The notes under the pieces were generated by a model that saw nothing but the letters and a program-made list of their open reading frames with translations, did not search any database and was not told the origin of the DNA. A DNA stretch of 41,502 nucleotides, taken from assembly GCA_021735655.1 (NCBI GenBank), contig JAIPGM010000013.1:1-41502 (forward strand), read 5' to 3'. Both the position numbers and the translations under genes were made by a program. Shown in pieces: positions 1,488 through 41,359 of the stretch. Source of the DNA: Candidatus Omnitrophota bacterium. Lineage in GTDB: Bacteria; Omnitrophota; Gorgyraeia; Duberdicusellales; 4484-171. Position 1 is the stretch's first letter. Every line of letters begins with the position of its first letter.

Positions 1488-1572
1488 TCCTTTGATAAAG
1501 GCAAATTTCGAGTGATCGAAAGACGCAAAGCCACCTGTCCTGATTAACAGGAAAGAGGGGTTACCAAAGAAC
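1488..1572 (+). promoter_or_regulatory. Candidate c-di-GMP-I (GEMM) riboswitch aptamer.
   Basis: Ordered conserved blocks: GGCAAA (1500-1505); hairpin UUUCGA-GUGA-UCGAAA with a GNRA tetraloop (1506-1521); G-ACGCAAAGCC (1522-1532); second hairpin CCUGU...ACAGG (1534-1551); GGGGUUACC (1557-1565). These match the recalled Vibrio Vc2 GEMM blocks GGCAAACC...GAAA...GGGACGCAAAGCC...GGGGUUACC in order and spacing. Confidence 0.55.
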
Positions 1573-1615: not shown

Positions 1616-1649
1616 AACCCTTCAGTCAATATTGCCTGAAGGGTTTTTT
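1616..1649 (+). terminator. Second terminator-like hairpin, paralogous to the first. It covers the TTG at 1632 and lies just upstream of the ATG at 1662.
   Basis: 8-bp stem CCCTTCAG/CTGAAGGG, 10-nt loop, followed by T6. The loop and 3' arm share ATTGCCT with the first hairpin. Confidence 0.5.
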
Positions 1650-1661
1650 AATTTAAAGACG

Positions 1662-1991
1662 ATGAAAAACACAAGTTTCTACACAAGACGATTTAAAGGG
1701 TTGATGGCGCTAGTATGCGGGGTTTCCGTGGTTGTGGGGGCATTTTTGGCCAATCCTTGCTATGCCAAGGAAAGTAAGAGTTTCAGCATCTCGATAACTA
1801 TTCCCAAAATCATAGAACAAGTAAATAAGCCTCTTAATCCCCCTCTTCTGAGAGCAGAAGAGCCTGAAGAAAAAGACACAGGGGAAAGGGACAAAAAAAA
1901 CGAAGTCGAAGCCGACGAGAGCAATTCAAACAAGCTAGACTACCCTGAAGGCTACACGATAATCGTTAAAACTATTGTCCAAGAGCCTTAA
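1662..1991 (+). CDS. Small secreted acidic protein (~109 aa with signal peptide). Only plus-strand gene in the window. The ORF-track start at 1632 (TTG, inside the hairpin) is replaced by the ATG at 1662.
   Basis: Start MKNTSFYTRRFKGLMALVCGVSVVVGAFLANPCYA is a typical signal peptide (cleavage after CYA). Mature region is rich in E/D/K. Sits directly downstream of the riboswitch and terminator structure. Confidence 0.5.
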   Translation: MKNTSFYTRRFKGLMALVCGVSVVVGAFLANPCYAKESKSFSISITIPKIIEQVNKPLNPPLLRAEEPEEKDTGERDKKNEVEADESNSNKLDYPEGYTIIVKTIVQEP

Positions 1992-2805: not shown

Positions 2806-3603
2806 TTAAGAAGGAAAACTCTCGCTTGTTGAAGGAAATTGGCCATTTTTTACATCCTGAATAAACTTTAAAGTAGCCGAATGCACTTCCTGGCCTAAAC
2901 TTTTATAACGCCGGACGAATTTAAGTTCTTTGCCCGGATAAAGACCAAGAAAATCATAAAGAACTAAAACTTGACCATCACAATATTTACCAGCCCCAAT
3001 GCCAATGGTCGGAATCTTTAAACTTTTAGTAATCTGACGACTGACCGACAAAGGTATACACTCTAAAACTAAACTGAAAACTCCTAAATCCTCTAAAAGC
3101 TTTGCCTGGTTAAATAAATCTTTAGCTGACTTATCATCTTTACCCTGAACCTTATAGCCACCGAGAAGATGAGCAGTCTGAGGAGTAAGTCCGATATGAC
3201 CGACAACCGGAATTTTATTTTTAATTAATTTTTTTACTACCTGGGGACATTTACTAAACCATTCAATTTTAACTGCATCAGCCCCATGAGCAATAAACTT
3301 TTTAGCATAATAAAGGCATTTAGCAGGATCTTTCTGGTAACTAGCATAAGGCATGTCAGCAACTACTAAGGCTCGGGCCACCCCCCTAGCTACAGCTTGT
3401 GTATGATTAAGCATCTCAGCTATAGTTACTTCACGAGTTTCTTTTAATCCCAAAACAACATTAGCTAAAGAATCTCCGACCAAAATTATATCTATACCCG
3501 AAGCATCCAAAATCCGGGCAAAAGAATAATCATAGCAAGTAAGCACAGTTATCTTCTGCTTAGCTTTCTTGGCTAGAATATCTTTAACTTTAACCTTATT
3601 CAT
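2806..3603 (-). CDS. panB: 3-methyl-2-oxobutanoate hydroxymethyltransferase (ketopantoate hydroxymethyltransferase).
   Basis: ITVLTCYDYSFARILDASGIDIILVGDSLANVVLG and ADMPYASY are hallmark PanB blocks. Length 265 aa. Confidence 0.9.
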   Translation of the reverse strand: MNKVKVKDILAKKAKQKITVLTCYDYSFARILDASGIDIILVGDSLANVVLGLKETREVTIAEMLNHTQAVARGVARALVVADMPYASYQKDPAKCLYYAKKFIAHGADAVKIEWFSKCPQVVKKLIKNKIPVVGHIGLTPQTAHLLGGYKVQGKDDKSAKDLFNQAKLLEDLGVFSLVLECIPLSVSRQITKSLKIPTIGIGAGKYCDGQVLVLYDFLGLYPGKELKFVRRYKSLGQEVHSATLKFIQDVKNGQFPSTSESFPS

Positions 3604-4546
3604 AACTAGTTACGATTCCTCCCTCTTCAACAATAAATATTTTCGCTAATGAGGGATTTTTAATCAGAAATTTCTCTATACCCTCTCTGCCACTTATAAA
3701 AAAGGCCGTAGCCAAAGCATCGGCCACAGCGCAACTCTCGGCAATCACACTAACACTTATAATATTGCTACTAGCCGGATATCCGGTACGTGGGTCTATT
3801 AAATGAGAATAACGCTTTCCGTTTCGATCGAAAAACTGCTCATAATTGCCTGAAGTAGCTATTGACTGATTAACTATTACCTTAGTTTCAATTATCTGAC
3901 CACGTTCTCTGGGGTCTCTCACTCCAACCTGCCAAGGTTTAGCGTATTTTTTACCTAAACAATACATATCGCCGCCAGCATTGATTAAGGCCGACTTCAC
4001 ACCCTTTGCTTTTAATTTTAAAACTGCTTTATCAACCATATAACCTTTAGCGATAGCGCCCAAATCAATGACCACGCCTTTTTTATTTATTTTTATGGTT
4101 TGGTTCTCAAGATCAATCTCAAGGCCGCTAATTCCGCCTAAATCCCTAATCTGTTCAATCAAAGTTTGCGAAGGTAGTGACGTTTGATCTGTTTTCTTTA
4201 TTAACCTTTTCCAAAATTTATACAAAATACCCCGACTCACATCAAAGCTACCTTCAGTCAAATCTGTTAACTTTTTAGAAAGCTCTAAAATCTCGATTAA
4301 ATCGTCTGAAGCCTTAAATGGCACAGCATAAGTTCTGTTAAAAACTGAAATCTCTGATTCCGAATCAAAAGCATTAAAAATCTTGTTTAATCTCCTAAAC
4401 TCACTATAAACAATATTTGACGCCTCAGGATTAGGAGATGTTACCTCTAGATAAGTTCCGGCAATTACAAACTTATTTTTATATAGTGGCTTAGAGCAAG
4501 CAACTAAAAAAATTAATAGAATTAAAACTAATAGTTTTCTAATCAT
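3596..4546 (-). CDS. apbE: FAD:protein FMN transferase (ApbE family lipoprotein).
   Basis: Lipoprotein signal LVACS. IDLGAIAKGYMVDKAV is an ApbE signature. Length 316 aa. Confidence 0.85.
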   Translation of the reverse strand: MIRKLLVLILLIFLVACSKPLYKNKFVIAGTYLEVTSPNPEASNIVYSEFRRLNKIFNAFDSESEISVFNRTYAVPFKASDDLIEILELSKKLTDLTEGSFDVSRGILYKFWKRLIKKTDQTSLPSQTLIEQIRDLGGISGLEIDLENQTIKINKKGVVIDLGAIAKGYMVDKAVLKLKAKGVKSALINAGGDMYCLGKKYAKPWQVGVRDPRERGQIIETKVIVNQSIATSGNYEQFFDRNGKRYSHLIDPRTGYPASSNIISVSVIAESCAVADALATAFFISGREGIEKFLIKNPSLAKIFIVEEGGIVTSYE

Positions 4547-4577
4547 GAGTTTTGTTTTAAACCTAAAAACAGGAAAA

Positions 4578-5006
4578 TCACTTGCCTTTCCATTGAGCAG
4601 TTGCCTTATTCTTTATGCCACCACGATTTGAAAATTCACCAATTATGATGATTTCATAAGGATTTAAAACAACTTTTAAATCCTCAAGAATTTTATTAAC
4701 CGCATGTTCATTGTAAACTTTTACACTCCGAAAAGAATAAAGATAATATTTTAAACTCTTCAACTCAATAAGCTTGCGACGGGGAATGTAGCGTATGGTT
4801 AAATTGGCAAAATCAGGTAACCCGGAATAAGGACAGATGCAGGTAAACTCATCGGTAGTTGATTCAACGGTTATTTTACGCTTAGGATACTCATAATCAA
4901 TAACCTGTAAGATACTAGAATCTATATCTTTCGGCAAAAAAGCTTTACCAGCTGTCTTTTTAGCCTTCTTTTCACACTGATCTTGAACTCTATCTTCGTA
5001 AATCAT
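4578..5006 (-). CDS. queF: NADPH-dependent 7-cyano-7-deazaguanine (preQ0) reductase, unimodular type.
   Basis: FTCICPYSGLPDFANLTIRYIP (catalytic Cys). ELKSLKYYLYSFR QueF motif. Length 142 aa. Confidence 0.85.
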   Translation of the reverse strand: MIYEDRVQDQCEKKAKKTAGKAFLPKDIDSSILQVIDYEYPKRKITVESTTDEFTCICPYSGLPDFANLTIRYIPRRKLIELKSLKYYLYSFRSVKVYNEHAVNKILEDLKVVLNPYEIIIIGEFSNRGGIKNKATAQWKGK

Positions 5007-5074
5007 CGGCAGTATTATATCAGATTTTTGGAAATAGGTGAAAACAAAACCTTTTATCTTTTTTTAAACAGTCT

Positions 5075-5827
5075 TTAATGCACTTCAACCCGCTCATAAA
5101 CCGGCTTAGCCCATTTACTTAAGCAATCAGTATCAAAATGATAAGCGGTAAAGCTCCTCAAGATAGACAATATCTCTTCCTGACATTTAACCGGAATTTG
5201 CAAACGGTTAACCATAGTAAATTCGCTATTTTGTATATAGCTAATGCAGCGCGATGCCTGATGGCTCAAAATCCGGACATCTCTAACCTGACTGCGGCAA
5301 CCCGGGCAAACAAACCCCCCCTTAGAGACACTAAAAGTATTCTCTTTCTCTAATACTCGCTGACAACTAATACAATGGTTAAGTTCTGGTTTGAATCCCG
5401 ATAAAGTTAAAAATTTTATTAAGAAAACATAAAAAACCATAGATTCTTTATCATTCTCTAGTAAATTTAAGCAATTTCTCAATAAGTTAAAAACGTAAGG
5501 ATTACTATCCCAAATCTGGGTTACCTTATCGACAAAATTGAATATCTGTCCGGCTATTTTTGCTTTTTCCAAATCTGAACCCAAATAACTATAACCGGAT
5601 ATCATATCCACATGAGAAACAAGCCAGATTTCGCTTTTTTTAGGATAAAAAAGAAATTCGTTAAGGCTAAAAATATCTAATGATGATGAAAATTCACGTT
5701 TATTAGTATAAAACCCTTTTAAGATACCACGGATCTTACCAAAACGCTCAGTATAGATAGTAGCGATTAGACTGGTTTCACGAAAATTGTACCTTTTTAA
5801 AATAAAGCCTATGTCTTTTTTAACCAT
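5075..5827 (-). CDS. recO: DNA repair protein RecO.
   Basis: N-terminal OB-fold pattern GFILKRYNFRETSLIATIYTERFGKIRGILKG. C-terminal Cys4 zinc finger CISCQ...CPGC. Length 250 aa. Confidence 0.8.
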   Translation of the reverse strand: MVKKDIGFILKRYNFRETSLIATIYTERFGKIRGILKGFYTNKREFSSSLDIFSLNEFLFYPKKSEIWLVSHVDMISGYSYLGSDLEKAKIAGQIFNFVDKVTQIWDSNPYVFNLLRNCLNLLENDKESMVFYVFLIKFLTLSGFKPELNHCISCQRVLEKENTFSVSKGGFVCPGCRSQVRDVRILSHQASRCISYIQNSEFTMVNRLQIPVKCQEEILSILRSFTAYHFDTDCLSKWAKPVYERVEVH

Positions 5828-6240
5828 AGTTTTTCCATTAACTCTTTCTGCTTTTTTTCGATCAAATCGCGCTTTTTCTTGCTACGATCATCATAGCCAA
5901 TAAGATGTAAAATTCCGTGCAAGCAATAGAGCAAGACCTCTTTCTGCCAATCAACCTTTAAACTTTTAGCAACTTTTACCGCCTCCTCGACTGACACTAC
6001 TATCTCACCCAAATAATCAGGATCTAGAGGATCAGAAAGATCAAAACTAATAACATCGGTAGGGGTTGTTTTTTTTAAATAACGCTTATTTAAATTAACA
6101 ATAAAAGCGTTATCAACTAAAGTTAAAGATATCGTTTTACTAGGGATTAACAGAAGACCGGCTGCTTTTTCTAAAGATTTACTAAGAGTTTTAAGATTTA
6201 CTCTCTTTATTTTTTGACGGTTTGTTATTTCGATTTTCAT
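5809..6240 (-). CDS. ybeY: rRNA maturation endoribonuclease YbeY.
   Basis: HGILHLIGYDD metal-binding motif (H-x-x-x-H-x-x-G-Y-D). Length 143 aa. Conserved neighbourhood with 7TM-HD and recO. Confidence 0.85.
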   Translation of the reverse strand: MKIEITNRQKIKRVNLKTLSKSLEKAAGLLLIPSKTISLTLVDNAFIVNLNKRYLKKTTPTDVISFDLSDPLDPDYLGEIVVSVEEAVKVAKSLKVDWQKEVLLYCLHGILHLIGYDDRSKKKRDLIEKKQKELMEKLWLKKT

Positions 6241-7582
6241 CTTTAGGGTAGTTCACGCGAGTGTGAAATATAGCATTTAAAATGCGGGTAAAACTTTGGG
6301 TAATTTTTTCAATATCTCTTAAAGTAAGATTACACTCATCCAATTCGCCTTCCATAAACCTTTTCTTAACTACCTCTCTGACCATTTCCTCTATCCGAGC
6401 CGGGGTCGGCTCTTCAAGGGTTCGCGATAAAGCCTCAATCGTATCAGCTAAAGCCACAATGGCAGTTTCTTTAATCTGAGGTTTTGGCCCCGGATAACGA
6501 TATTCTTCTTCATGCTTTCCTTCTGGTTCAAGTTCTTTGGCCCGCTGGTAAAAAAAATAAACTAAGGTTCGTCCATGATGTTGGGCAATAAAATCAATAA
6601 TTTTAGAATTAATTCGGTATTTTTTAGCCAGATCAATCCCATCTTTTACATGGTTAAAAATAATCAACTTACTCATTGAAGGCTTAAGATTTTTATGAAC
6701 ATCACGATAACTAATTAGATTTTCTACAAAATAGTCGGGTTTTATCATCTTGCCAACATCATGATAATATGCACCGACCCGAGCGAGCAAAGGATTCGCG
6801 CCGATAGCTTCTGCAGCAGCTTCACTCAAATTAGCAACCACCAAAGAATGTTGATATGTGCCTGGAGCTGCTAAAATTAACTTCCTTAATAAAGGGTGAT
6901 TAAAATCAGACAACTCAAGCAAAGATACATTAGTAACAACTTTAAATACATATTCAAAAACCGGCTGAAACAACAAAACGATTCCTGAAGATATAACACC
7001 ATTGAGCACGCAAACCTTAAGTAAACTTAAATCAATACCCGATAGAACAAAAAGATTCTGTTCCCTTTCCATAAGAAAGGCTATCAAAAATTGAATAATT
7101 CCGGCAATTAGCCCCGCCTTAATAATCTGAAAACGCCGCCGAGCTCGATAGCTAAGCATAGCCGCAGACAGTGAACCAATGAAAAGACTAATTCCTAAAT
7201 TAAAATTTCCTCCATCGATTCCGGCGCTTAAAGCCGAAATAAAAATAATAAACAACAATGATAACTCTAGGTTGTTGAACAAAAGAGTAATCAGTATTGC
7301 AAAACCAATAGCAATAACGCCATAACCGGAAATTGGGAAAATTACAATGGTCAGGAGCGGTATCAATACAGCAATCGCAGCCAATATTGATAAGTCCAAA
7401 TAATTAGGCAGGTTGTTTATCTTTCTTAAAAAACTGGCATAGATAAAAAGAACTAAGGCTAAGGCCAGAAAAGAAAAATCAATCGAGTAGATAAAAAAAA
7501 CATAGCCAACAATCGAAAAAAAAGTTATACCAATAATAGAATTATCAAAGTTAATCCCTTTTTTAGCTATGGTAATTTTCAT
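6191..7582 (-). CDS. 7TM receptor with intracellular HD hydrolase domain (PgpH/YqfF family).
   Basis: N-terminal polytopic membrane region. C-terminal HD domain (HSLVVANLSEAAAEAIGANPLLARVGAYYHDVGK). Classic position upstream of ybeY. The stop overlaps the ybeY start by about 50 nt. Confidence 0.8.
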   Translation of the reverse strand: MKITIAKKGINFDNSIIGITFFSIVGYVFFIYSIDFSFLALALVLFIYASFLRKINNLPNYLDLSILAAIAVLIPLLTIVIFPISGYGVIAIGFAILITLLFNNLELSLLFIIFISALSAGIDGGNFNLGISLFIGSLSAAMLSYRARRRFQIIKAGLIAGIIQFLIAFLMEREQNLFVLSGIDLSLLKVCVLNGVISSGIVLLFQPVFEYVFKVVTNVSLLELSDFNHPLLRKLILAAPGTYQHSLVVANLSEAAAEAIGANPLLARVGAYYHDVGKMIKPDYFVENLISYRDVHKNLKPSMSKLIIFNHVKDGIDLAKKYRINSKIIDFIAQHHGRTLVYFFYQRAKELEPEGKHEEEYRYPGPKPQIKETAIVALADTIEALSRTLEEPTPARIEEMVREVVKKRFMEGELDECNLTLRDIEKITQSFTRILNAIFHTRVNYPKDENRNNKPSKNKESKS

Positions 7583-36813: not shown

Positions 36814-37605
36814 TCAACGCATCATAGTCAAATATAGATAAAAAGTCGGAGCAGTAAAAATTAAACTGTCCATAACATCAAGAACTCCACCCATGCCAGG
36901 AAGAAGCTTACCTGAATCCTTTACCTGACAATCCCGCTTTATTAAAGACTCAAAAAGATCTCCCAGCTGAGCGACAATAGCTAAAATAATAATTAGGAAA
37001 AACTTCTCCCAAAAATTAATACTTCCAATAAACAACGAAAAAACAACACCTACTCCTAAACTAGTAAAAAATCCTCCGATTGCACCCTCAAGAGACTTTT
37101 TGGGGCTTATCCTTCTAATAAGTAAAGTTTTACCGAAGTTCTTTCCCCAAAGATAGGCTCCCATATCCGAAGACTTGGTGACCAAAATTAAAAACCCGGT
37201 AAGTAGCGCCCCCTCGGGAAGCTGTCTTATCCTGATTAAAAAAGAAAAACACCAGGAAATATAAATAACCGCAAAAACAGTTGCCGAAATTGACAGCACC
37301 GACTGATGAGTCTCTTTTTTAGTAAGTTCTAATAAAAACAAAATAAAAAGAGCTATAACAACAAACATGAATTGCCAGCCTTCACCGGGAGAAAAACCAA
37401 AATAAATAGTCACCGGTATCAAAGCTCCAACAAAAAGCCCTAAAGGCTTGAACATTTTCACTCCCTTCTTTTCAACCATATAGAAAAACTCATAAAGCCC
37501 GATAACAATCAACAAGGTAACGAACAAACCACACAAGGGATAGTAAAAAAGACAAAAAATAGTAAGCGAAATCAAAATAATTGCTGGAGGTAATCGTTTA
37601 GCCAT
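36814..37605 (-). CDS. cdsA: Phosphatidate cytidylyltransferase. Start moved to the internal ATG at 37605.
   Basis: Polytopic membrane protein with C-terminal LPGMGGVLDVMDS (CdsA signature). The ATG at 37605 has a GGAGA site 5 nt upstream and avoids the 77-nt overlap with uppS. Confidence 0.8.
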   Translation of the reverse strand: MAKRLPPAIILISLTIFCLFYYPLCGLFVTLLIVIGLYEFFYMVEKKGVKMFKPLGLFVGALIPVTIYFGFSPGEGWQFMFVVIALFILFLLELTKKETHQSVLSISATVFAVIYISWCFSFLIRIRQLPEGALLTGFLILVTKSSDMGAYLWGKNFGKTLLIRRISPKKSLEGAIGGFFTSLGVGVVFSLFIGSINFWEKFFLIIILAIVAQLGDLFESLIKRDCQVKDSGKLLPGMGGVLDVMDSLIFTAPTFYLYLTMMR

Positions 37606-38302
37606 GAATCTCTCCGTATCGGCGCTCTCTGGCTGAATAGGCAGCAACTGCTTTTTTGAGTTCGCTGTGATCAAAATCAGGCCAAAAAGTCTCGGTGAAG
37701 TAAAGTTCGCTATACGCTAAATTCCAAAGCAGAAAATTACTTATCCTCTGCTCCCCTGACGTCCTGATTAAAAGATCCGGCTCGGGATCATCCCCCAAAG
37801 AAAGATAACTCCCGAATGTCTTTTCATCTATGTCAGATTCGGTTAATTTTTTATTAATACAATCAGACACTATACCTCTGGTGGCTCCTACGATATCCCA
37901 CCGTCCTCCGTAATCTATAGCAATATTAAAGAAAAAACTCTTATGATTTTCGGTAAGATTTTCTAGTTCTTTGATTTTATTTACCGTTGTTTTTTTAAGT
38001 TTTGACTTCCGACCGATAACTTTTAGTCTTATCTCTTCCTTCATCAATTCCTTTTTGTAATCATCAAGAAACTTATCTAAGTAACGAAAAAGGAAATCGA
38101 TTTCTTTTTTCGGTCGATTCCAATTCTCGGTAGAAAAAGCAAAAATAGTAAGCGCCTGTACGCCTAGTTTCTTAGTCTCACGAACTATTTCTTTTATCTT
38201 CTCTATGCCTCGCTTATGGCCAGCTGTTCGCAAAAGGCCTTTTTTCTTTGCCCAACGGCCGTTTCCATCCATAATTATAGCAATATGTTGAGGAACTTCC
38301 AT
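37598..38302 (-). CDS. uppS: Undecaprenyl-diphosphate synthase (cis-isoprenyl transferase).
   Basis: HIAIIMDGNGRWAKKKG and FAFSTENWNRP motifs. Length 234 aa. Confidence 0.9.
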   Translation of the reverse strand: MEVPQHIAIIMDGNGRWAKKKGLLRTAGHKRGIEKIKEIVRETKKLGVQALTIFAFSTENWNRPKKEIDFLFRYLDKFLDDYKKELMKEEIRLKVIGRKSKLKKTTVNKIKELENLTENHKSFFFNIAIDYGGRWDIVGATRGIVSDCINKKLTESDIDEKTFGSYLSLGDDPEPDLLIRTSGEQRISNFLLWNLAYSELYFTETFWPDFDHSELKKAVAAYSARERRYGEIHG

Positions 38303-38324: not shown

Positions 38325-38350
38325 ATTGATTAATTTATGTCACTAAAAAA
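38325..38350 (-). terminator. Strong intrinsic terminator ending the right-hand envelope cluster.
   Basis: On the minus strand, GGGGGC-CCCAAA-GCCCCC forms a 6-bp GC stem followed by T6. It lies ~50 nt after the stop of the 111-aa gene. It is the only GC-rich hairpin in this AT-rich region. Confidence 0.7.
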
Positions 38351-38401
38351 GGGGGCTTTGGGGCCCCCTCTTGCAAGAATACGTCGGCTACTATGGTTAA
38401 A

Positions 38402-38737
38402 TTAACGTTCCCCGAGCTTCTGCCTCATTAATTCTTCCTTCAAATTATCTTCCAGCTTATCTTTAAGCTTCTCAAGCTTAGAATTCTCTAAACTCAAAGA
38501 TTCTAGCTGAACATTCAAAAGGGTAATATCTTCCTTTAGCTTATCATTATCACCCTGGATAGTCTCTATTGTCTTTTTTAGATCTTCAGTGGCCTTTTCA
38601 CAGCTTATGTTCTTAGCAAGCTGTTTTTTGTATTCACTAGACAAAGAATTCATTTTAACCAATATCGACACACCGGCAATCACCAGAACAACGATTAAAC
38701 CGATCAAAAGACTTATAATTAATGGGCTATCTTTCAT
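38402..38737 (-). CDS. N-terminally anchored (single TM) coiled-coil protein.
   Basis: TM helix LIISLLIGLIVVLVIAGVSILV followed by a heptad-rich Lys/Glu/Leu sequence. ATGA overlap with the upstream OmpA-like gene. Confidence 0.55.
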   Translation of the reverse strand: MKDSPLIISLLIGLIVVLVIAGVSILVKMNSLSSEYKKQLAKNISCEKATEDLKKTIETIQGDNDKLKEDITLLNVQLESLSLENSKLEKLKDKLEDNLKEELMRQKLGER

Positions 38738-39366
38738 TTTAACTCCTCCTCTTCTAGCTGCGAGCCTAAAGGATCTGCCTTCTTAACCACCTTAGGTAAA
38801 ATTACAATCTCTACGCGTCGATTCGTCTGTCTACCTTCAGGGGTGTCATTAGATGCAACTAACTTGTATTCTCCATAGCCAATCGCTGACAACCGCAAAG
38901 GATTAATTCCCTCTTCTTCAAGATAATAAAGCACACCAAGAGCACGTTGAGCTGAAAGCTCCCAGTTTGTTTTCCAACGAGAGAATTTTATTGGTTCGTT
39001 ATCGGTGTGGCCTTCAATCCCAATATCATTGTCGGGAACTTCCGATTTGAGGATTTTGATAACCTTATCTAAAATTGGTAAGCTCTCTTTTCTTAGCTTA
39101 GCTTTTCCTGAATCAAAAAGAACTTCAGCAACAAAGGTTATCACTAACCCCTTCTCAGCCATCTCAAGGCGTACCTGTTTATCCTTTATCTCACCGGACA
39201 GCCTTTTTTCTAAAAGCTGCTGGGTACTTTTTAGCTCTTGAAGCTCACTTTTAAGCACCTGTATTTTTTCGAGATCTGAACGTCTTCCTTTTTGAAAAAC
39301 TATCGCACATCCGTTAAGAACAAAAACATAAATAACTAATAACAAAAGGCCTTTTTTGTTCATCAC
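38734..39366 (-). CDS. OmpA/MotB-domain lipoprotein with a central coiled coil.
   Basis: Lipobox VLNGC. C-terminal OmpA-like peptidoglycan-binding domain (GHTDNEPI...NWELSAQRALGV...NRRVEIVI). Confidence 0.75.
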   Translation of the reverse strand: MMNKKGLLLLVIYVFVLNGCAIVFQKGRRSDLEKIQVLKSELQELKSTQQLLEKRLSGEIKDKQVRLEMAEKGLVITFVAEVLFDSGKAKLRKESLPILDKVIKILKSEVPDNDIGIEGHTDNEPIKFSRWKTNWELSAQRALGVLYYLEEEGINPLRLSAIGYGEYKLVASNDTPEGRQTNRRVEIVILPKVVKKADPLGSQLEEEELK

Positions 39367-39518
39367 AACCTCACTCTTTATTTACTATTAGACTATAAGT
39401 TACTTACCATAAACAAACCAAAATTAGGTTATCATAATAGGCTTTACAAGTCAAGTAATTTGATACCTCAAAACTTACCCCCCTAACCTTCAAAACTCCT
39501 TTAAATAAAACAAATAAT

Positions 39519-39550
39519 AAGAGGCAACCCCAAAAGAAGAGTTGCCTCTC
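39519..39550 (-). terminator. Intrinsic terminator after the microprotein/lipoprotein unit.
   Basis: About 9-bp stem GAGGCAAC/GTTGCCTC with a 12-nt loop, followed on the minus strand by a TTATTATTTGTTTT T-rich tract, ~20 nt after the microprotein stop. Confidence 0.5.
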
Positions 39551-39570
39551 AACATATACTTTTTGCTATT

Positions 39571-39648
39571 TTATTTCTTAGGTTTAGCCTTCTTTTTAGG
39601 CTTCTTTTTAGGCTTACATTTACTCTTAGAACCACATCCACAAGCCAT
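39571..39648 (-). CDS. 25-aa Cys/Lys-rich microprotein MACGCGSKSKCKPKKKPKKKAKPKK (not in the ORF track).
   Basis: ATG preceded by a perfect AGGAGG with a 6-nt spacer. The upstream gene ends in tandem stops TAATAA directly abutting the SD site (minus strand reads TAATAAGGAGGTAACTCATG). TAA stop, then a terminator hairpin downstream. Confidence 0.45.
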   Translation of the reverse strand: MACGCGSKSKCKPKKKPKKKAKPKK

Positions 39649-39662
39649 GAGTTACCTCCTTA

Positions 39663-40007
39663 TTACTTTATAAGATTGTCCATTTTACTCTTAACATCGT
39701 TAACAGCCTGGCCGGCAGCTTCTTTTAAGGCAGTCTTGGCTTTCTCAAGAATACTTTTTGCATCTTGAGAATCTTTATCAACATATCTCAAGACATACTG
39801 GGCAAGATCAACTGCCTGCTGGAACTCTTTAGAATTATAAAAAGTTTTGGCCTGAGAAATTAAATAAGTCGCCTTCTCCTGAGTGTCTTCGATAGCTTTA
39901 GCAATGTTTATGGCTTCCTTACTTGATCCAGCTTTATTCGAACTGCAACCAACCAAAGATCCTGCTACAAAAATCCCCAACATTAGAACAATCAACCCTT
40001 TTCTCAT
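39663..40007 (-). CDS. Small helical lipoprotein of unknown function.
   Basis: Lipobox SLVGCSS. 114 aa. Predicted all-alpha, Ala/Lys-rich. Confidence 0.55.
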   Translation of the reverse strand: MRKGLIVLMLGIFVAGSLVGCSSNKAGSSKEAINIAKAIEDTQEKATYLISQAKTFYNSKEFQQAVDLAQYVLRYVDKDSQDAKSILEKAKTALKEAAGQAVNDVKSKMDNLIK

Positions 40008-40027
40008 ACTAACACCTCCCTATTACT

Positions 40028-40561
40028 TTAACCGTTCTTGTTTTTCAATAAACCAAAAAAGTTATAAACTCCTGATGCCCCTAAAAGACAATACCCCAAA
40101 AGAATCATCCAAAGTCCTAAACCAATTCTTACCTGTAAGACCAATTTATCCAAATCAGTAGTTTTAATTTTATAAACACCGACAAAAAATATTGCTAGGC
40201 CAACTATGCCAAAAGTAAGATACAGCCAACGGTTCTTTCCGAAAAACAAAACTAAAAGAAAAATAATAACCGCTAAAACCGGAGCTGCCCAGACGGCAAA
40301 GCTTTTCTTGTCGGTATTTTTTATGCCGGGATTAAATATCTGAATAATACTAATAACCAATCTTGAATCGGCGCCATTAGCCATAACCGGGATTTGAAAA
40401 CCAGAAATTGCCGCAATATTACTTTGTGCTTTACCGGTTAGAAGCTTTGATATTGCTCCTACCTGTTTTGATTCAACATGCACCCAAGGAAGAAAAAATC
40501 CTAAAACAATTATAACAACTGCCAAAAAAACTAATGATTTAAGTGCTACCTTCATTTCCAC
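40028..40561 (-). CDS. Integral membrane protein (~4 TM) of unknown function.
   Basis: 177 aa with four hydrophobic helices. No recognised motif. Confidence 0.5.
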   Translation of the reverse strand: MEMKVALKSLVFLAVVIIVLGFFLPWVHVESKQVGAISKLLTGKAQSNIAAISGFQIPVMANGADSRLVISIIQIFNPGIKNTDKKSFAVWAAPVLAVIIFLLVLFFGKNRWLYLTFGIVGLAIFFVGVYKIKTTDLDKLVLQVRIGLGLWMILLGYCLLGASGVYNFFGLLKNKNG

Positions 40562-40591
40562 GTCTCCTTGTTTTTGCAGAACTTTATCTAT

Positions 40592-40840
40592 CTATTTAGC
40601 AAACTTATTATACAACCAGGCTATTATAATTCCACAAATACCCGCATCTATAAATCCCCAAAAGCCTCCGATTAAACTTCCTAAGGTTGTAGCCTCATAG
40701 CCATAATAAATTGAACCCAGAGCTCTTACAAACCCACCCCCGTAGTTAAAAAACATTGCTACCATGCCCATAATTAATAAAGCTACCCCCCAAACAATAC
40801 CCAAAGTAAGCCCTAAAGCTTTTACATCTAATTTTGCCAT
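40592..40840 (-). CDS. Small 2-TM glycine-zipper membrane protein (GlsB/YeaQ/YmgE-like?).
   Basis: 82 aa. GxxxG-rich helices (GGGFVRALGS..LIGGFWGFIDAGICGIIIAWL). AGGAGG 4 nt upstream of the ATG. Confidence 0.5.
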   Translation of the reverse strand: MAKLDVKALGLTLGIVWGVALLIMGMVAMFFNYGGGFVRALGSIYYGYEATTLGSLIGGFWGFIDAGICGIIIAWLYNKFAK

Positions 40841-41053
40841 AGTTCCTCCTTATTTCTTAAAGGCTCTAATGACCTGAATAAAATTCTAGATTACCAAAAT
40901 TACAAATATATGATAGCTCCGGAAAAAGAATCGGTCAAATAGAAAAGAATAGTCCCCGGAAAGGATTTATATCAATTGGAGTTGGGATCCACTGAATTGT
41001 CTTATTCAAAGATATTACTATAAATTATTTATTTTATTTTTTTATATTCGTTA

Positions 41054-41359
41054 TTATTTATTCTGTTGTTGATCTTCTTTCACTCTCTGTTCATACTCTT
41101 TCATTTTTTGCTCATACTCTTCATCGTCTCTCTTCTTTCTTTGCTCGTGCTCTTTCACTCTTTGCTCGTACTCTTTAATTTCTTGCTTGTATTTTTCATC
41201 TCTTTCTTTCACCCGTTGATCGTATTCTTGCATATTTTTAAAATATTGCTTCTTTGATTCTAATCTGTCTGTCAGTAAAAAAATAAGGGCGGCTAGAGTC
41301 ACGATCTGTAGTATAACTACCGTAATTATTAATTTTTTAAATCCATTATTTTCTGTCAT
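41054..41359 (-). CDS. Single-pass membrane protein with a tandem charged EYEQRVKE-type repeat domain.
   Basis: N-terminal TM LIITVVILQIVTLAALIFLL. Then (K/E)EYEQRVKE(H/R/D) units repeated 4-5 times. AGGAGG 5 nt upstream of the ATG. Confidence 0.55.
   Translation of the reverse strand: MTENNGFKKLIITVVILQIVTLAALIFLLTDRLESKKQYFKNMQEYDQRVKERDEKYKQEIKEYEQRVKEHEQRKKRDDEEYEQKMKEYEQRVKEDQQQNK
41066..41240. repeat. Imperfect in-frame tandem DNA repeat (~33-39-nt units, TTTGCTCRTACTCTTTCA-like) encoding the EYEQRVKE repeats.
   Basis: Reiterated CTCTTTCACTCTYTGYTCATACTCTT variants are visible on the plus strand. Confidence 0.5.

Follow-up and report, generated by a model that had tools for sequence, protein, structure and literature searches.

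OmpA-like lipoproteins and protein anchors of the cell wall are already well known, among them Pal, the small lipoproteins YiaD, YfiB and PA1041, and the periplasmic region of MotB, MotS and PomB. Genes for envelope lipids may stand close to envelope structural genes, as in the E. coli-type envelope supra-operon with its order dxr-uppS-cdsA-rseP-bamA-skp-lpxD. Omnitrophota are uncultured, often ultra-small bacteria, some of which are thought to be host-dependent, and we know of no experimental study of their envelope. Here, we analyze a stretch of 41,502 nucleotides (nt) from a Candidatus Omnitrophota bacterium (GenBank assembly GCA_021735655.1, contig JAIPGM010000013.1, positions 1 to 41,502; hereafter "the window"), in which seven small genes, g1 to g7, precede uppS. 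Our main subjects are the lipoprotein gene g6, its coiled-coil partner g7 and the hairpin between g7 and uppS. A preliminary description of this DNA had read all seven genes as one envelope cluster.

In our best overall explanation, which we hold to be probable by a modest degree, the region has two components: a variable slot, occupied by the accessory genes g1 to g4 (41359-39663), adjoins a g6-g7 wall-anchor module that heads an envelope-lipid array. The module has its own promoter, followed by g6, g7 and a hairpin with a core of five G and five C (the G5/C5 hairpin), and this order is kept throughout the sampled Omnitrophota. The microprotein gene g5 and its terminator precede the module in the window's clade. 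New in this locus are a lipoprotein that carries a MotB-type domain and has an obligate coiled-coil partner, the fixed position of the pair ahead of uppS across the sampled Omnitrophota, a locus-specific covarying hairpin and a conserved microprotein. A search of the literature on Omnitrophota with OmpA, outer membrane or MotB-like lipoproteins returned nothing on the g6-g7 pair, its position, the hairpin or the microprotein, and a preprint on outer-membrane tethering systems mentions neither Omnitrophota nor MotB.

A conserved gene pair ahead of uppS

We compared 83 loci that encode relatives of g6; exact-protein look-ups supplied three, and the other 80 were sampled with one genome per species and with an 8-mer bias. 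Most bear an Omnitrophota label; for the others, the label is a placeholder or mis-binned. L014, L079 and the 'uncultured Planctomycetia/Planctomycetales' loci, whose titles name Methanosarcinales, Elusimicrobia or Planctomycetia, have the typical g6-g7-uppS order; such non-Omnitrophota labels are probably mis-binned or placeholder taxonomy.

When the window's proteins were searched against these loci with tblastn, g6 was found in all 83, at 58-82% identity. It is followed downstream by uppS (78 loci), cdsA (76) and dxr (75), always in the same order and on the same strand. Of all genes at the locus, g6 is clearly the most conserved in the distant clade, with a median identity of 61.8% that lies above those of the neighbouring enzymes (about 37-48%; uppS 45.9%, cdsA 43.8%, dxr 39.1%, rseP 37.4%). 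Upstream of the pair, purA is present in 41 loci, and in the window's clade eno-divIC is found, then assorted small genes. For g1 to g5, there was no tblastn match at E<=1e-3 in the 83 loci and no phmmer match at E<=1 against all upstream open reading frames (ORFs) of related loci.

The lipoprotein g6

We corrected the start of g6 to the ATG at 39363, which gives a protein of 209 amino acids (aa) that matches a deposited 'OmpA family protein' at 100%. The OmpA domain noted in the preliminary description is firmly supported by PF00691 (E 1.1e-19; 71 bits against a gathering cut-off of 27.2), which is covered in full (1-98 of 98). With a signal peptide and a lipobox each, g6 (LNGC) and g4 (LVGC) are predicted bacterial lipoproteins. 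The g6 lipobox reads L-[SN]-G-C, in which Cys19 is invariant across 80 sequences, as is G18, and the mature N-terminus that follows is unusually conserved (C-[TA]-[VI]-[IV]-F-Q-K-G-R-R-x-D-x-E-K-I). An AlphaFold2 (AF2) model (predicted local distance difference test, pLDDT, 79.8) shows a helix to about residue 60 and then the OmpA-like domain. Within this domain, T120, D121, R140 and A141, which form the TD...R-A peptide-stem contact motif, are invariant in 49 homologues, and so is NRRVE.

The closest relatives of this domain belong to motility stators. By profile, g6 comes closest among solved structures to B. subtilis MotB (6ysl), with 137 bits over residues 38-197, stator linker helix included, while E. 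coli Pal (2hqs) reaches 38 bits only. Foldseek places MotS (9ljk, 40% identity) at the top, then the periplasmic domains of TssL, MotB and PomB. NCBIfam models match below their cut-offs, MotB/MotD with 142-152 bits (cut-offs 283-301), YiaD with 107, YfiB with 71 and PA1041 with 68 bits. We conclude that g6 carries a MotB/MotS-type OmpA-like peptidoglycan-binding domain, and from its conserved contact residues the protein would be expected to bind peptidoglycan.

With MotB, MotS and PomB as nearest relatives in sequence and structure, and with ZorB models matching g6 over its full length (78 bits), g6 might be read as the peptidoglycan-binding subunit of an ion-driven stator of the MotAB, PomAB, ExbBD or ZorAB kind. 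We consider this highly improbable: the N-terminus is a lipoprotein signal with an invariant lipobox and not a channel helix with a conserved Asp, no motA-, zorA- or exbB-like gene is adjacent in the neighbourhoods examined, and the transmembrane (TM) helix of g7 contains no acidic residue. A Zorya ZorB was rejected, as the matches come via the shared MotB-like domain and no large genes of the zorA or zorC/D/E type are adjacent in those neighbourhoods. We also rejected Pal of the Tol-Pal system, to which the match is far weaker than to MotB; g6 does not stand in a tol cluster, having purA or eno-divIC upstream and uppS downstream.

The coiled-coil partner g7

The ATGA overlap of g6 and g7 that was noted at the outset is present in the window and is kept in 31 of 79 scored loci, mostly of the window's clade; in nearly all others, the two genes are separated by 0-40 nt (maximum 54). 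Within the codons for EEELK, a conserved motif at the C-terminus of g6, lies the GAGGAG Shine-Dalgarno (SD) site of g7 (38738-38755, minus strand), next to the start/stop overlap, and the conservation of this peptide probably reflects the translation signal of g7. The pair of OmpA lipoprotein and TM coiled-coil protein is a real and translationally coupled unit that, as the preliminary description said, fits no named system.

In the AF2 model (pLDDT 87.7), g7 is a single helix (5-110), composed of a TM segment (5-27) and about 83 residues of coiled coil, which extend about 12 nm outside the membrane. In nearly all loci, the gap between g6 and uppS is filled by one ORF of 100-170 aa that encodes a TM helix at the N-terminus and a long coiled coil. 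The g7 proteins of the window's clade can be aligned with those of the distant clade over the TM helix, over a juxtamembrane motif and over a K..LE..LK motif in the C-terminal part. Database homologues (n=109) are unnamed or bear scattered automatic names, and every named source organism belongs to the Omnitrophota. A profile search of the PDB gave generic coiled coils only, family searches gave only sub-threshold coiled-coil matches, and Pfam scans of 41 and 8 further g7-type partner sequences gave nothing above sub-threshold coiled-coil noise. Exact-sequence look-ups of g6 and g7 returned no record. An identity of g7 as FtsB/DivIC was rejected (PF04977, 24.5 bits against a cut-off of 28.9; a separate DivIC gene stands beside eno in related genomes).

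The hairpin at the uppS junction

The preliminary description placed a strong GC hairpin near 38.34 kb, behind g7, and took it as insulation from the uppS operon; the hairpin is real, the insulation is not supported. Folding gives a 10-bp stem at 38347-38372 with a U-run (free energy, dG, -17.8 kcal/mol), and the segment has the GC-rich stem-loop and the U-tract on the transcribed strand that characterize an intrinsic terminator. The G5..C5 arrangement occurs once in the 41.5-kb window and in none of 100 shuffles. Of 79 loci, 76 have a stem-loop with a T-rich tail (on average 7.2 of 10 positions T) where the partner gene meets uppS. One clade has the core GGGGG(C)..(G)CCCCC, the other GGGGG(AT)..(AT)CCCCC. 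Compensatory changes are seen at the first inner pair, with A-T in 36 and C-G in 34 cases (70 of 71 paired), and at the first outer pair, where 39 cases have A-T and 22 have T-A. The loop varies from 3 to 11 nt, which speaks for an RNA hairpin and against a binding site for a protein dimer with fixed spacing. Across 935 kb of related DNA, 66 loci have a strict G5..C5 hairpin at this junction, and only three other sites have one; the element is not the generic terminator of these genomes. We consider it likely that the hairpin acts as a leaky terminator, an attenuator or a stabiliser of the 3' end, and not as an insulator.

A model for the proposed wall-anchor module

We propose the following function for the module. 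The g6 protein would be exported, lipid-modified at Cys19 and presumably held in a membrane by this anchor, while its MotB-type OmpA-like domain would bind peptidoglycan non-covalently via the invariant Asp121 and Arg140. Translational coupling would yield g7 in fixed proportion to g6, as a membrane-anchored helix of about 12 nm. The two proteins could then pair, with the C-terminal K..LE..LK of g7 meeting the invariant basic N-terminus of mature g6, or with the helices lying parallel, and the pair would staple membrane to wall in a way analogous to Pal with TolA/CpoB or to the periplasmic anchor of MotB. The hairpin might end or stabilise most transcripts, so that a minority reads through into uppS-cdsA-dxr-rseP-ispG and the structural pair is made in large excess over the enzymes.

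The orientation of g7 and, in the window and a few other loci, the distance between hairpin and uppS weigh against this proposal. The residues flanking the g7 helix carry on average 1.3 K+R on the N-terminal and 3.6 on the C-terminal side, which leans to a cytoplasmic coil; by net charge, 20 sequences favour the N-terminal side, 36 the C-terminal side and 20 neither, an ambiguous topology. With the coil in the cytoplasm, there would be no periplasmic coiled-coil contact between g6 and g7. In this case, g7 could be an N-out/C-in protein of the YhcB/ZapG, ZipA or EzrA kind that connects cytoplasmic enzymes of envelope synthesis, UppS and CdsA among them, to the membrane, co-expressed with g6 and working separately from it. 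Besides the charges, the position of the gene next to uppS and cdsA would suit such a role, as would the TM helix, which is the best-conserved part of g7 in the window's clade and suggests intramembrane contacts. We rate this alternative as somewhat unlikely. No DUF1043/YhcB match was obtained at E<=1, 40 of 76 sequences give a tie or the opposite result under the charge rule, and the tight coupling of g7 translation to that of an exported lipoprotein is conserved. Moreover, the commonest shared sub-threshold matches of the partner proteins are DUF3450 (31 of 41), DivIC (17 of 41) and TolA_bind_tri (4 members), all of which we take to be periplasmic coiled coils.

The distance from the end of the hairpin to the uppS start has a median of 27.5 nt, is at most 30 nt in 40 of 70 loci and is 9 nt in several species, which leaves no space for a promoter and a leader; to judge by this spacing, uppS would be transcribed at least partly by read-through. 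In the window, uppS, which has no SD site, starts 48 nt after the C-run, and in a few loci the gap exceeds 100 nt, where a promoter could fit. Together with the GC-rich stem, the T-rich tail and promoter-like hexamers inside g7, these longer gaps would agree with an efficient terminator, with a uppS promoter that overlaps the hairpin or the 3' end of g7 and an adjacency that is only historical synteny. However, a promoter upstream of the hairpin would still meet it, the gap is short in the majority of loci, and G5/C5 is far more conserved and more specific to this locus than ordinary terminators are. An efficient terminator thus appears unlikely to us, and we retain the membrane-to-wall staple with a leaky hairpin as the preferred reading.

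Transcription units of the region

The boundaries of the proposed cluster could not be upheld. Instead of a self-contained unit bounded by terminators, we found a stronger terminator inside the region (39518-39551; dG -24 kcal/mol, z -5.7, none of 200 shuffles as stable) and a conserved promoter after it. At the upstream edge, no bounding terminator was found, and the contig ends 143 nt past g1. Hairpins equivalent to the internal one follow the microprotein in L004, L010 and L026, and a terminator is present at this place in four of nine loci including the window. The g6-g7 promoter motif, CTTGACTT...TATGATAnnCT (also TTGACT-N14-TGnTAnnCT), lies about 65-75 nt upstream of the g6 start and is conserved in L004, L010, L012, L024, L026, L027 and L031, and further upstream in L055. 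A generic promoter and terminator scan missed both the G5/C5 hairpin and this promoter, the latter because its -10 element matches in only three of six positions; both were recovered by folding and comparative alignment. Another promoter-like site lies in the 213-nt gap between g1 and g2 and suggests that g2 to g5 may be transcribed separately from g1. The internal terminator and the promoters therefore divide the region into at least two, probably three, transcription units.

It is also very unlikely that g1 to g7 form one co-functional envelope cluster that a terminator insulates from the uppS operon, as had been proposed. All seven genes share strand and strong SD sites, a strong hairpin stands 3' of g7, and one further genome, L085, has homologues of g2 and g4 at a distance of 2.3 kb from each other. 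Yet the internal terminator and promoter separate the genes, and g6-g7 are syntenic with uppS in the great majority of loci, where the hairpin abuts the uppS start. The supposed co-evolution of the seven genes is contradicted by the absence of g1 to g4 from the 83 related loci and by the unrelated contexts in which homologues of g2, g3 and g4 occur. Judged by the refuting condition that the preliminary description itself had set, the cluster of seven fails.

Accessory genes and microprotein

The genes g1 to g4 encode lineage-specific, small predicted membrane proteins and lipoproteins outside the conserved module. In the close relative L010, the slot that corresponds to g1-g4 (about 3120-6660), upstream of g6, is filled by five paralogues in tandem, each of about 197 aa (cluster c35). 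The interval from divIC to g6 thus behaves like a hot spot where small genes specific to single lineages are found. The first gene, g1, has a TM helix (10-28), an AGGAGG SD site and an EYEQRVKE-type heptad-repeat tail; the tandem repeats ascribed to it are indeed present, with a 21-nt (heptad) period, and family searches gave sub-threshold matches only. For g3, the most likely start is the ATG at 40555 (175 aa), judged by SD spacing and the lengths of homologues, with the ORF open from a GTG at 40561. Its unnamed family has 162 cluster representatives at E<=1e-3 with homologues in unrelated contexts; g3 is absent from the 83 OmpA loci, and a metagenome scan for close relatives found none. The lipoprotein g4 has a near-threshold TPR_3 match, and a metagenome scan for it gave three short loci only.

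For g2, the earlier statement that no product has a known function is partly outdated, as it passes NCBIfam NF037947 holin_4 ('bacteriophage holin') with 94.1 bits against a cut-off of 70. We doubt the holin name. There was no Pfam or PHROG match to g2 and no tblastn match in 50,697 phage records, and three examined contexts of its 62 homologues are all cellular and non-phage, with PPIase, YajQ and MscS-like gene neighbours. The label of 'bacteriophage holin' that the Prokaryotic Genome Annotation Pipeline (PGAP) attaches to g2 is thus no evidence of a prophage.

The holin label could nevertheless suggest a remnant of a prophage lysis cassette, with g2 as holin and g6/g7 as two-component spanin composed of an outer-membrane lipoprotein and an inner-membrane coiled-coil protein. 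A lipoprotein and a type-II coiled-coil protein encoded by overlapping genes recall Rz/Rz1, and g7 has weak matches to Rz-like spanin PHROGs (E 0.0017 and 0.0047) and to LysB. In addition to the cellular contexts of g2, such an origin is opposed by the lack of an endolysin or any phage gene, by the fixed housekeeping position of g6-g7 across the 83 loci, by the full MotB-type wall-binding domain in the 209 residues of g6 and by a gene order that is the reverse of Rz/Rz1. We regard it as extremely improbable.

A g2 homologue in L086 (2178-3875) adjoins an MscS-family gene (Pfam), and a g4 homologue in L093 (409-1856) adjoins mscS/mscL-like genes, which were recognised by eye only. These mechanosensitive-channel neighbours may indicate a link to osmotic or envelope stress, or may be coincidence.

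The microprotein gene g5 has a AAGGAGGT SD site, and its product has neither TM helix nor lipobox. We found g5-like ORFs of 24-30 aa in eight other species of the window's clade. All are Lys-rich with an M-[GAS]-C-[CG]-... start (MGCC... or MACGCG..., then a KPKKK-type tail), have a strong SD site (AAGGAGG core in most) and share the strand of g6, from which they lie 218-688 nt upstream, whatever other upstream genes stand there. The pattern occurs nowhere else within about 7 kb in these eight loci. The MGC(C) N-terminus and polybasic tail resemble eukaryotic acylation and polybasic membrane-targeting motifs, or histone-H1-like tails. A role of g5 as leader peptide of g6 is unlikely because a separate gene intervenes in two loci, L012 and L024. 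The product of g5 is a conserved microprotein that ordinary gene callers would miss.

Other features of the window

All seven ORFs lie on the minus strand where the preliminary description had placed them, after correction of the g6 and g3 starts, and their products are, as it said, small envelope proteins. Its statement that each has a TM helix, a lipobox or both holds for six genes and fails for g5. Hydropathy gives one TM segment for g1, two for g2, four for g3 and one for g7. The strong SD sites that it saw as unlike the rest of the window are also there: a match of at least 6 nt to AAGGAGGT precedes six of the seven genes, compared to 5 of 34 other long ORFs; four of these five have the SD site at the first start codon, and 20 of the 34 have no SD site at all at the first start.

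Downstream follow uppS, cdsA, dxr, rseP, ispG, a T2SSE ATPase gene, proS, rimP, nusA, infB, trpS, scpA and ruvB. The minus strand carries all long ORFs except one embedded in infB and one of 119 aa at 1632-1991 (plus strand). The latter, the sole evident plus-strand gene in the window, encodes a signal-peptide-like N-terminus and is preceded by a c-di-GMP-I riboswitch (1490-1568, plus strand; 65.5 bits, E 9e-11). In the cluster region, Rfam gave no match at gathering thresholds. Coordinates are collected in Table 1.

Table 1. Positions of genes and signals around the g6-g7 module in the window, and of g5-like ORFs in related loci (locus coordinates).
Feature	Position	Strand	Description
g1	41054..41359	-	101 aa, one N-terminal TM helix, heptad-repeat tail
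Promoter-like site in g1/g2 gap	40910..40938	-	TTGACC-17-TATCAT, 10/12; consensus match only
g2	40592..40840	-	82 aa, glycine-rich membrane protein, two predicted TM segments
g3	40028..40555	-	175 aa, four TM segments, unnamed family
g4	39663..40007	-	114 aa, helical predicted lipoprotein, lipobox LVGC
g5	39571..39648	-	25-aa Cys/Lys-rich microprotein, MACGCGSKSKCKPKKKPKKKAKPKK
Intrinsic terminator after g5	39518..39551	-	14-bp stem and T-run
g6-g7 promoter	39426..39454	-	TTGACT, 17-nt spacer, extended -10 TGaTAACCT
g6	38734..39363	-	209-aa predicted lipoprotein with MotB/MotS-type OmpA-like domain
g7	38402..38737	-	111-aa bitopic membrane protein, TM helix and coiled coil
G5/C5 hairpin and U-tract, g7/uppS junction	38345..38372	-	Folding, conservation, covariation
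uppS	37598..38302	-	NCBIfam TIGR00055, 290 bits; first gene of conserved array uppS-cdsA-dxr-rseP-ispG
g5-like ORF, L004	780-857	g6 strand	
g5-like ORF, L010	6739-6813	g6 strand	
g5-like ORF, L012	6371-6448	g6 strand	
g5-like ORF, L024	6313-6396	g6 strand	
g5-like ORF, L026	2740-2823	g6 strand	
g5-like ORF, L027	797-889	g6 strand	
g5-like ORF, L031	6783-6866	g6 strand	
g5-like ORF, L055	6669-6746	g6 strand	

Implications

A predicted wall-binding lipoprotein that is more conserved than the adjoining essential enzymes is a strong candidate for a core structural protein, and possibly for a phylum marker or antigen. A hairpin directly before uppS would be a compact natural case of a fixed ratio between a structural protein and lipid-carrier enzymes. 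We tentatively extend this to a more far-reaching idea: g6-g7 could be the main membrane-peptidoglycan tether specific to this phylum, a MotB-type wall binder on a lipid anchor that a 12-nm coiled coil fixed in the membrane holds in place, with the G5/C5 element as an attenuator that couples its output quantitatively to undecaprenyl phosphate (Und-P) and phospholipid synthesis (uppS, cdsA), to which one clade adds a Cys/Lys microprotein of 24-30 aa and of an undescribed kind.

Comparison with known systems

By sequence and fold, the periplasmic region of MotB, MotS and PomB is closest to g6, with an OmpA-like domain, a preceding linker helix and the motifs GHTDN..P....SNWELS..RA and NRRVEI in common. 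These proteins have a proton-channel TM helix with an Asp, whereas g6 has a lipoprotein signal and a predicted lipid anchor instead, lacks a MotA partner and stands in a context of envelope-lipid synthesis, not of motility.

Pal, together with TolA/CpoB, shares with g6 the lipobox and the OmpA-like wall-binding domain, a coiled-coil gene that follows, as in pal-cpoB, and, by analogy, a possible role in tying membrane to wall. However, g6 is nearer to MotB and lies outside a tol cluster, and g7 is TM-anchored and has neither the tetratricopeptide repeat (TPR) domain of CpoB nor domain III of TolA. YiaD, YfiB and PA1041 are likewise small lipoproteins with a C-terminal OmpA-like domain; g6 stays below their family cut-offs and differs in its long N-terminal helix, the invariant FQKGRR and the obligate coiled-coil neighbour.

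The Rz/Rz1 spanins resemble the pair in combining a lipoprotein with a bitopic coiled-coil membrane protein encoded by overlapping genes, and a periplasm-spanning end-to-end contact could be analogous. In contrast to spanins, g6-g7 are cellular and conserved in the sampled Omnitrophota, stand outside any lysis cassette in reversed gene order and include a wall-binding domain. The E. coli-type supra-operon, finally, also clusters uppS, cdsA, dxr and rseP with genes for envelope structure and biogenesis. In the window, rseP is followed by ispG and the T2SSE ATPase gene instead of bamA, skp and lpx, and in the Omnitrophota it is the structural pair g6-g7 that heads the array, with a conserved hairpin in between.

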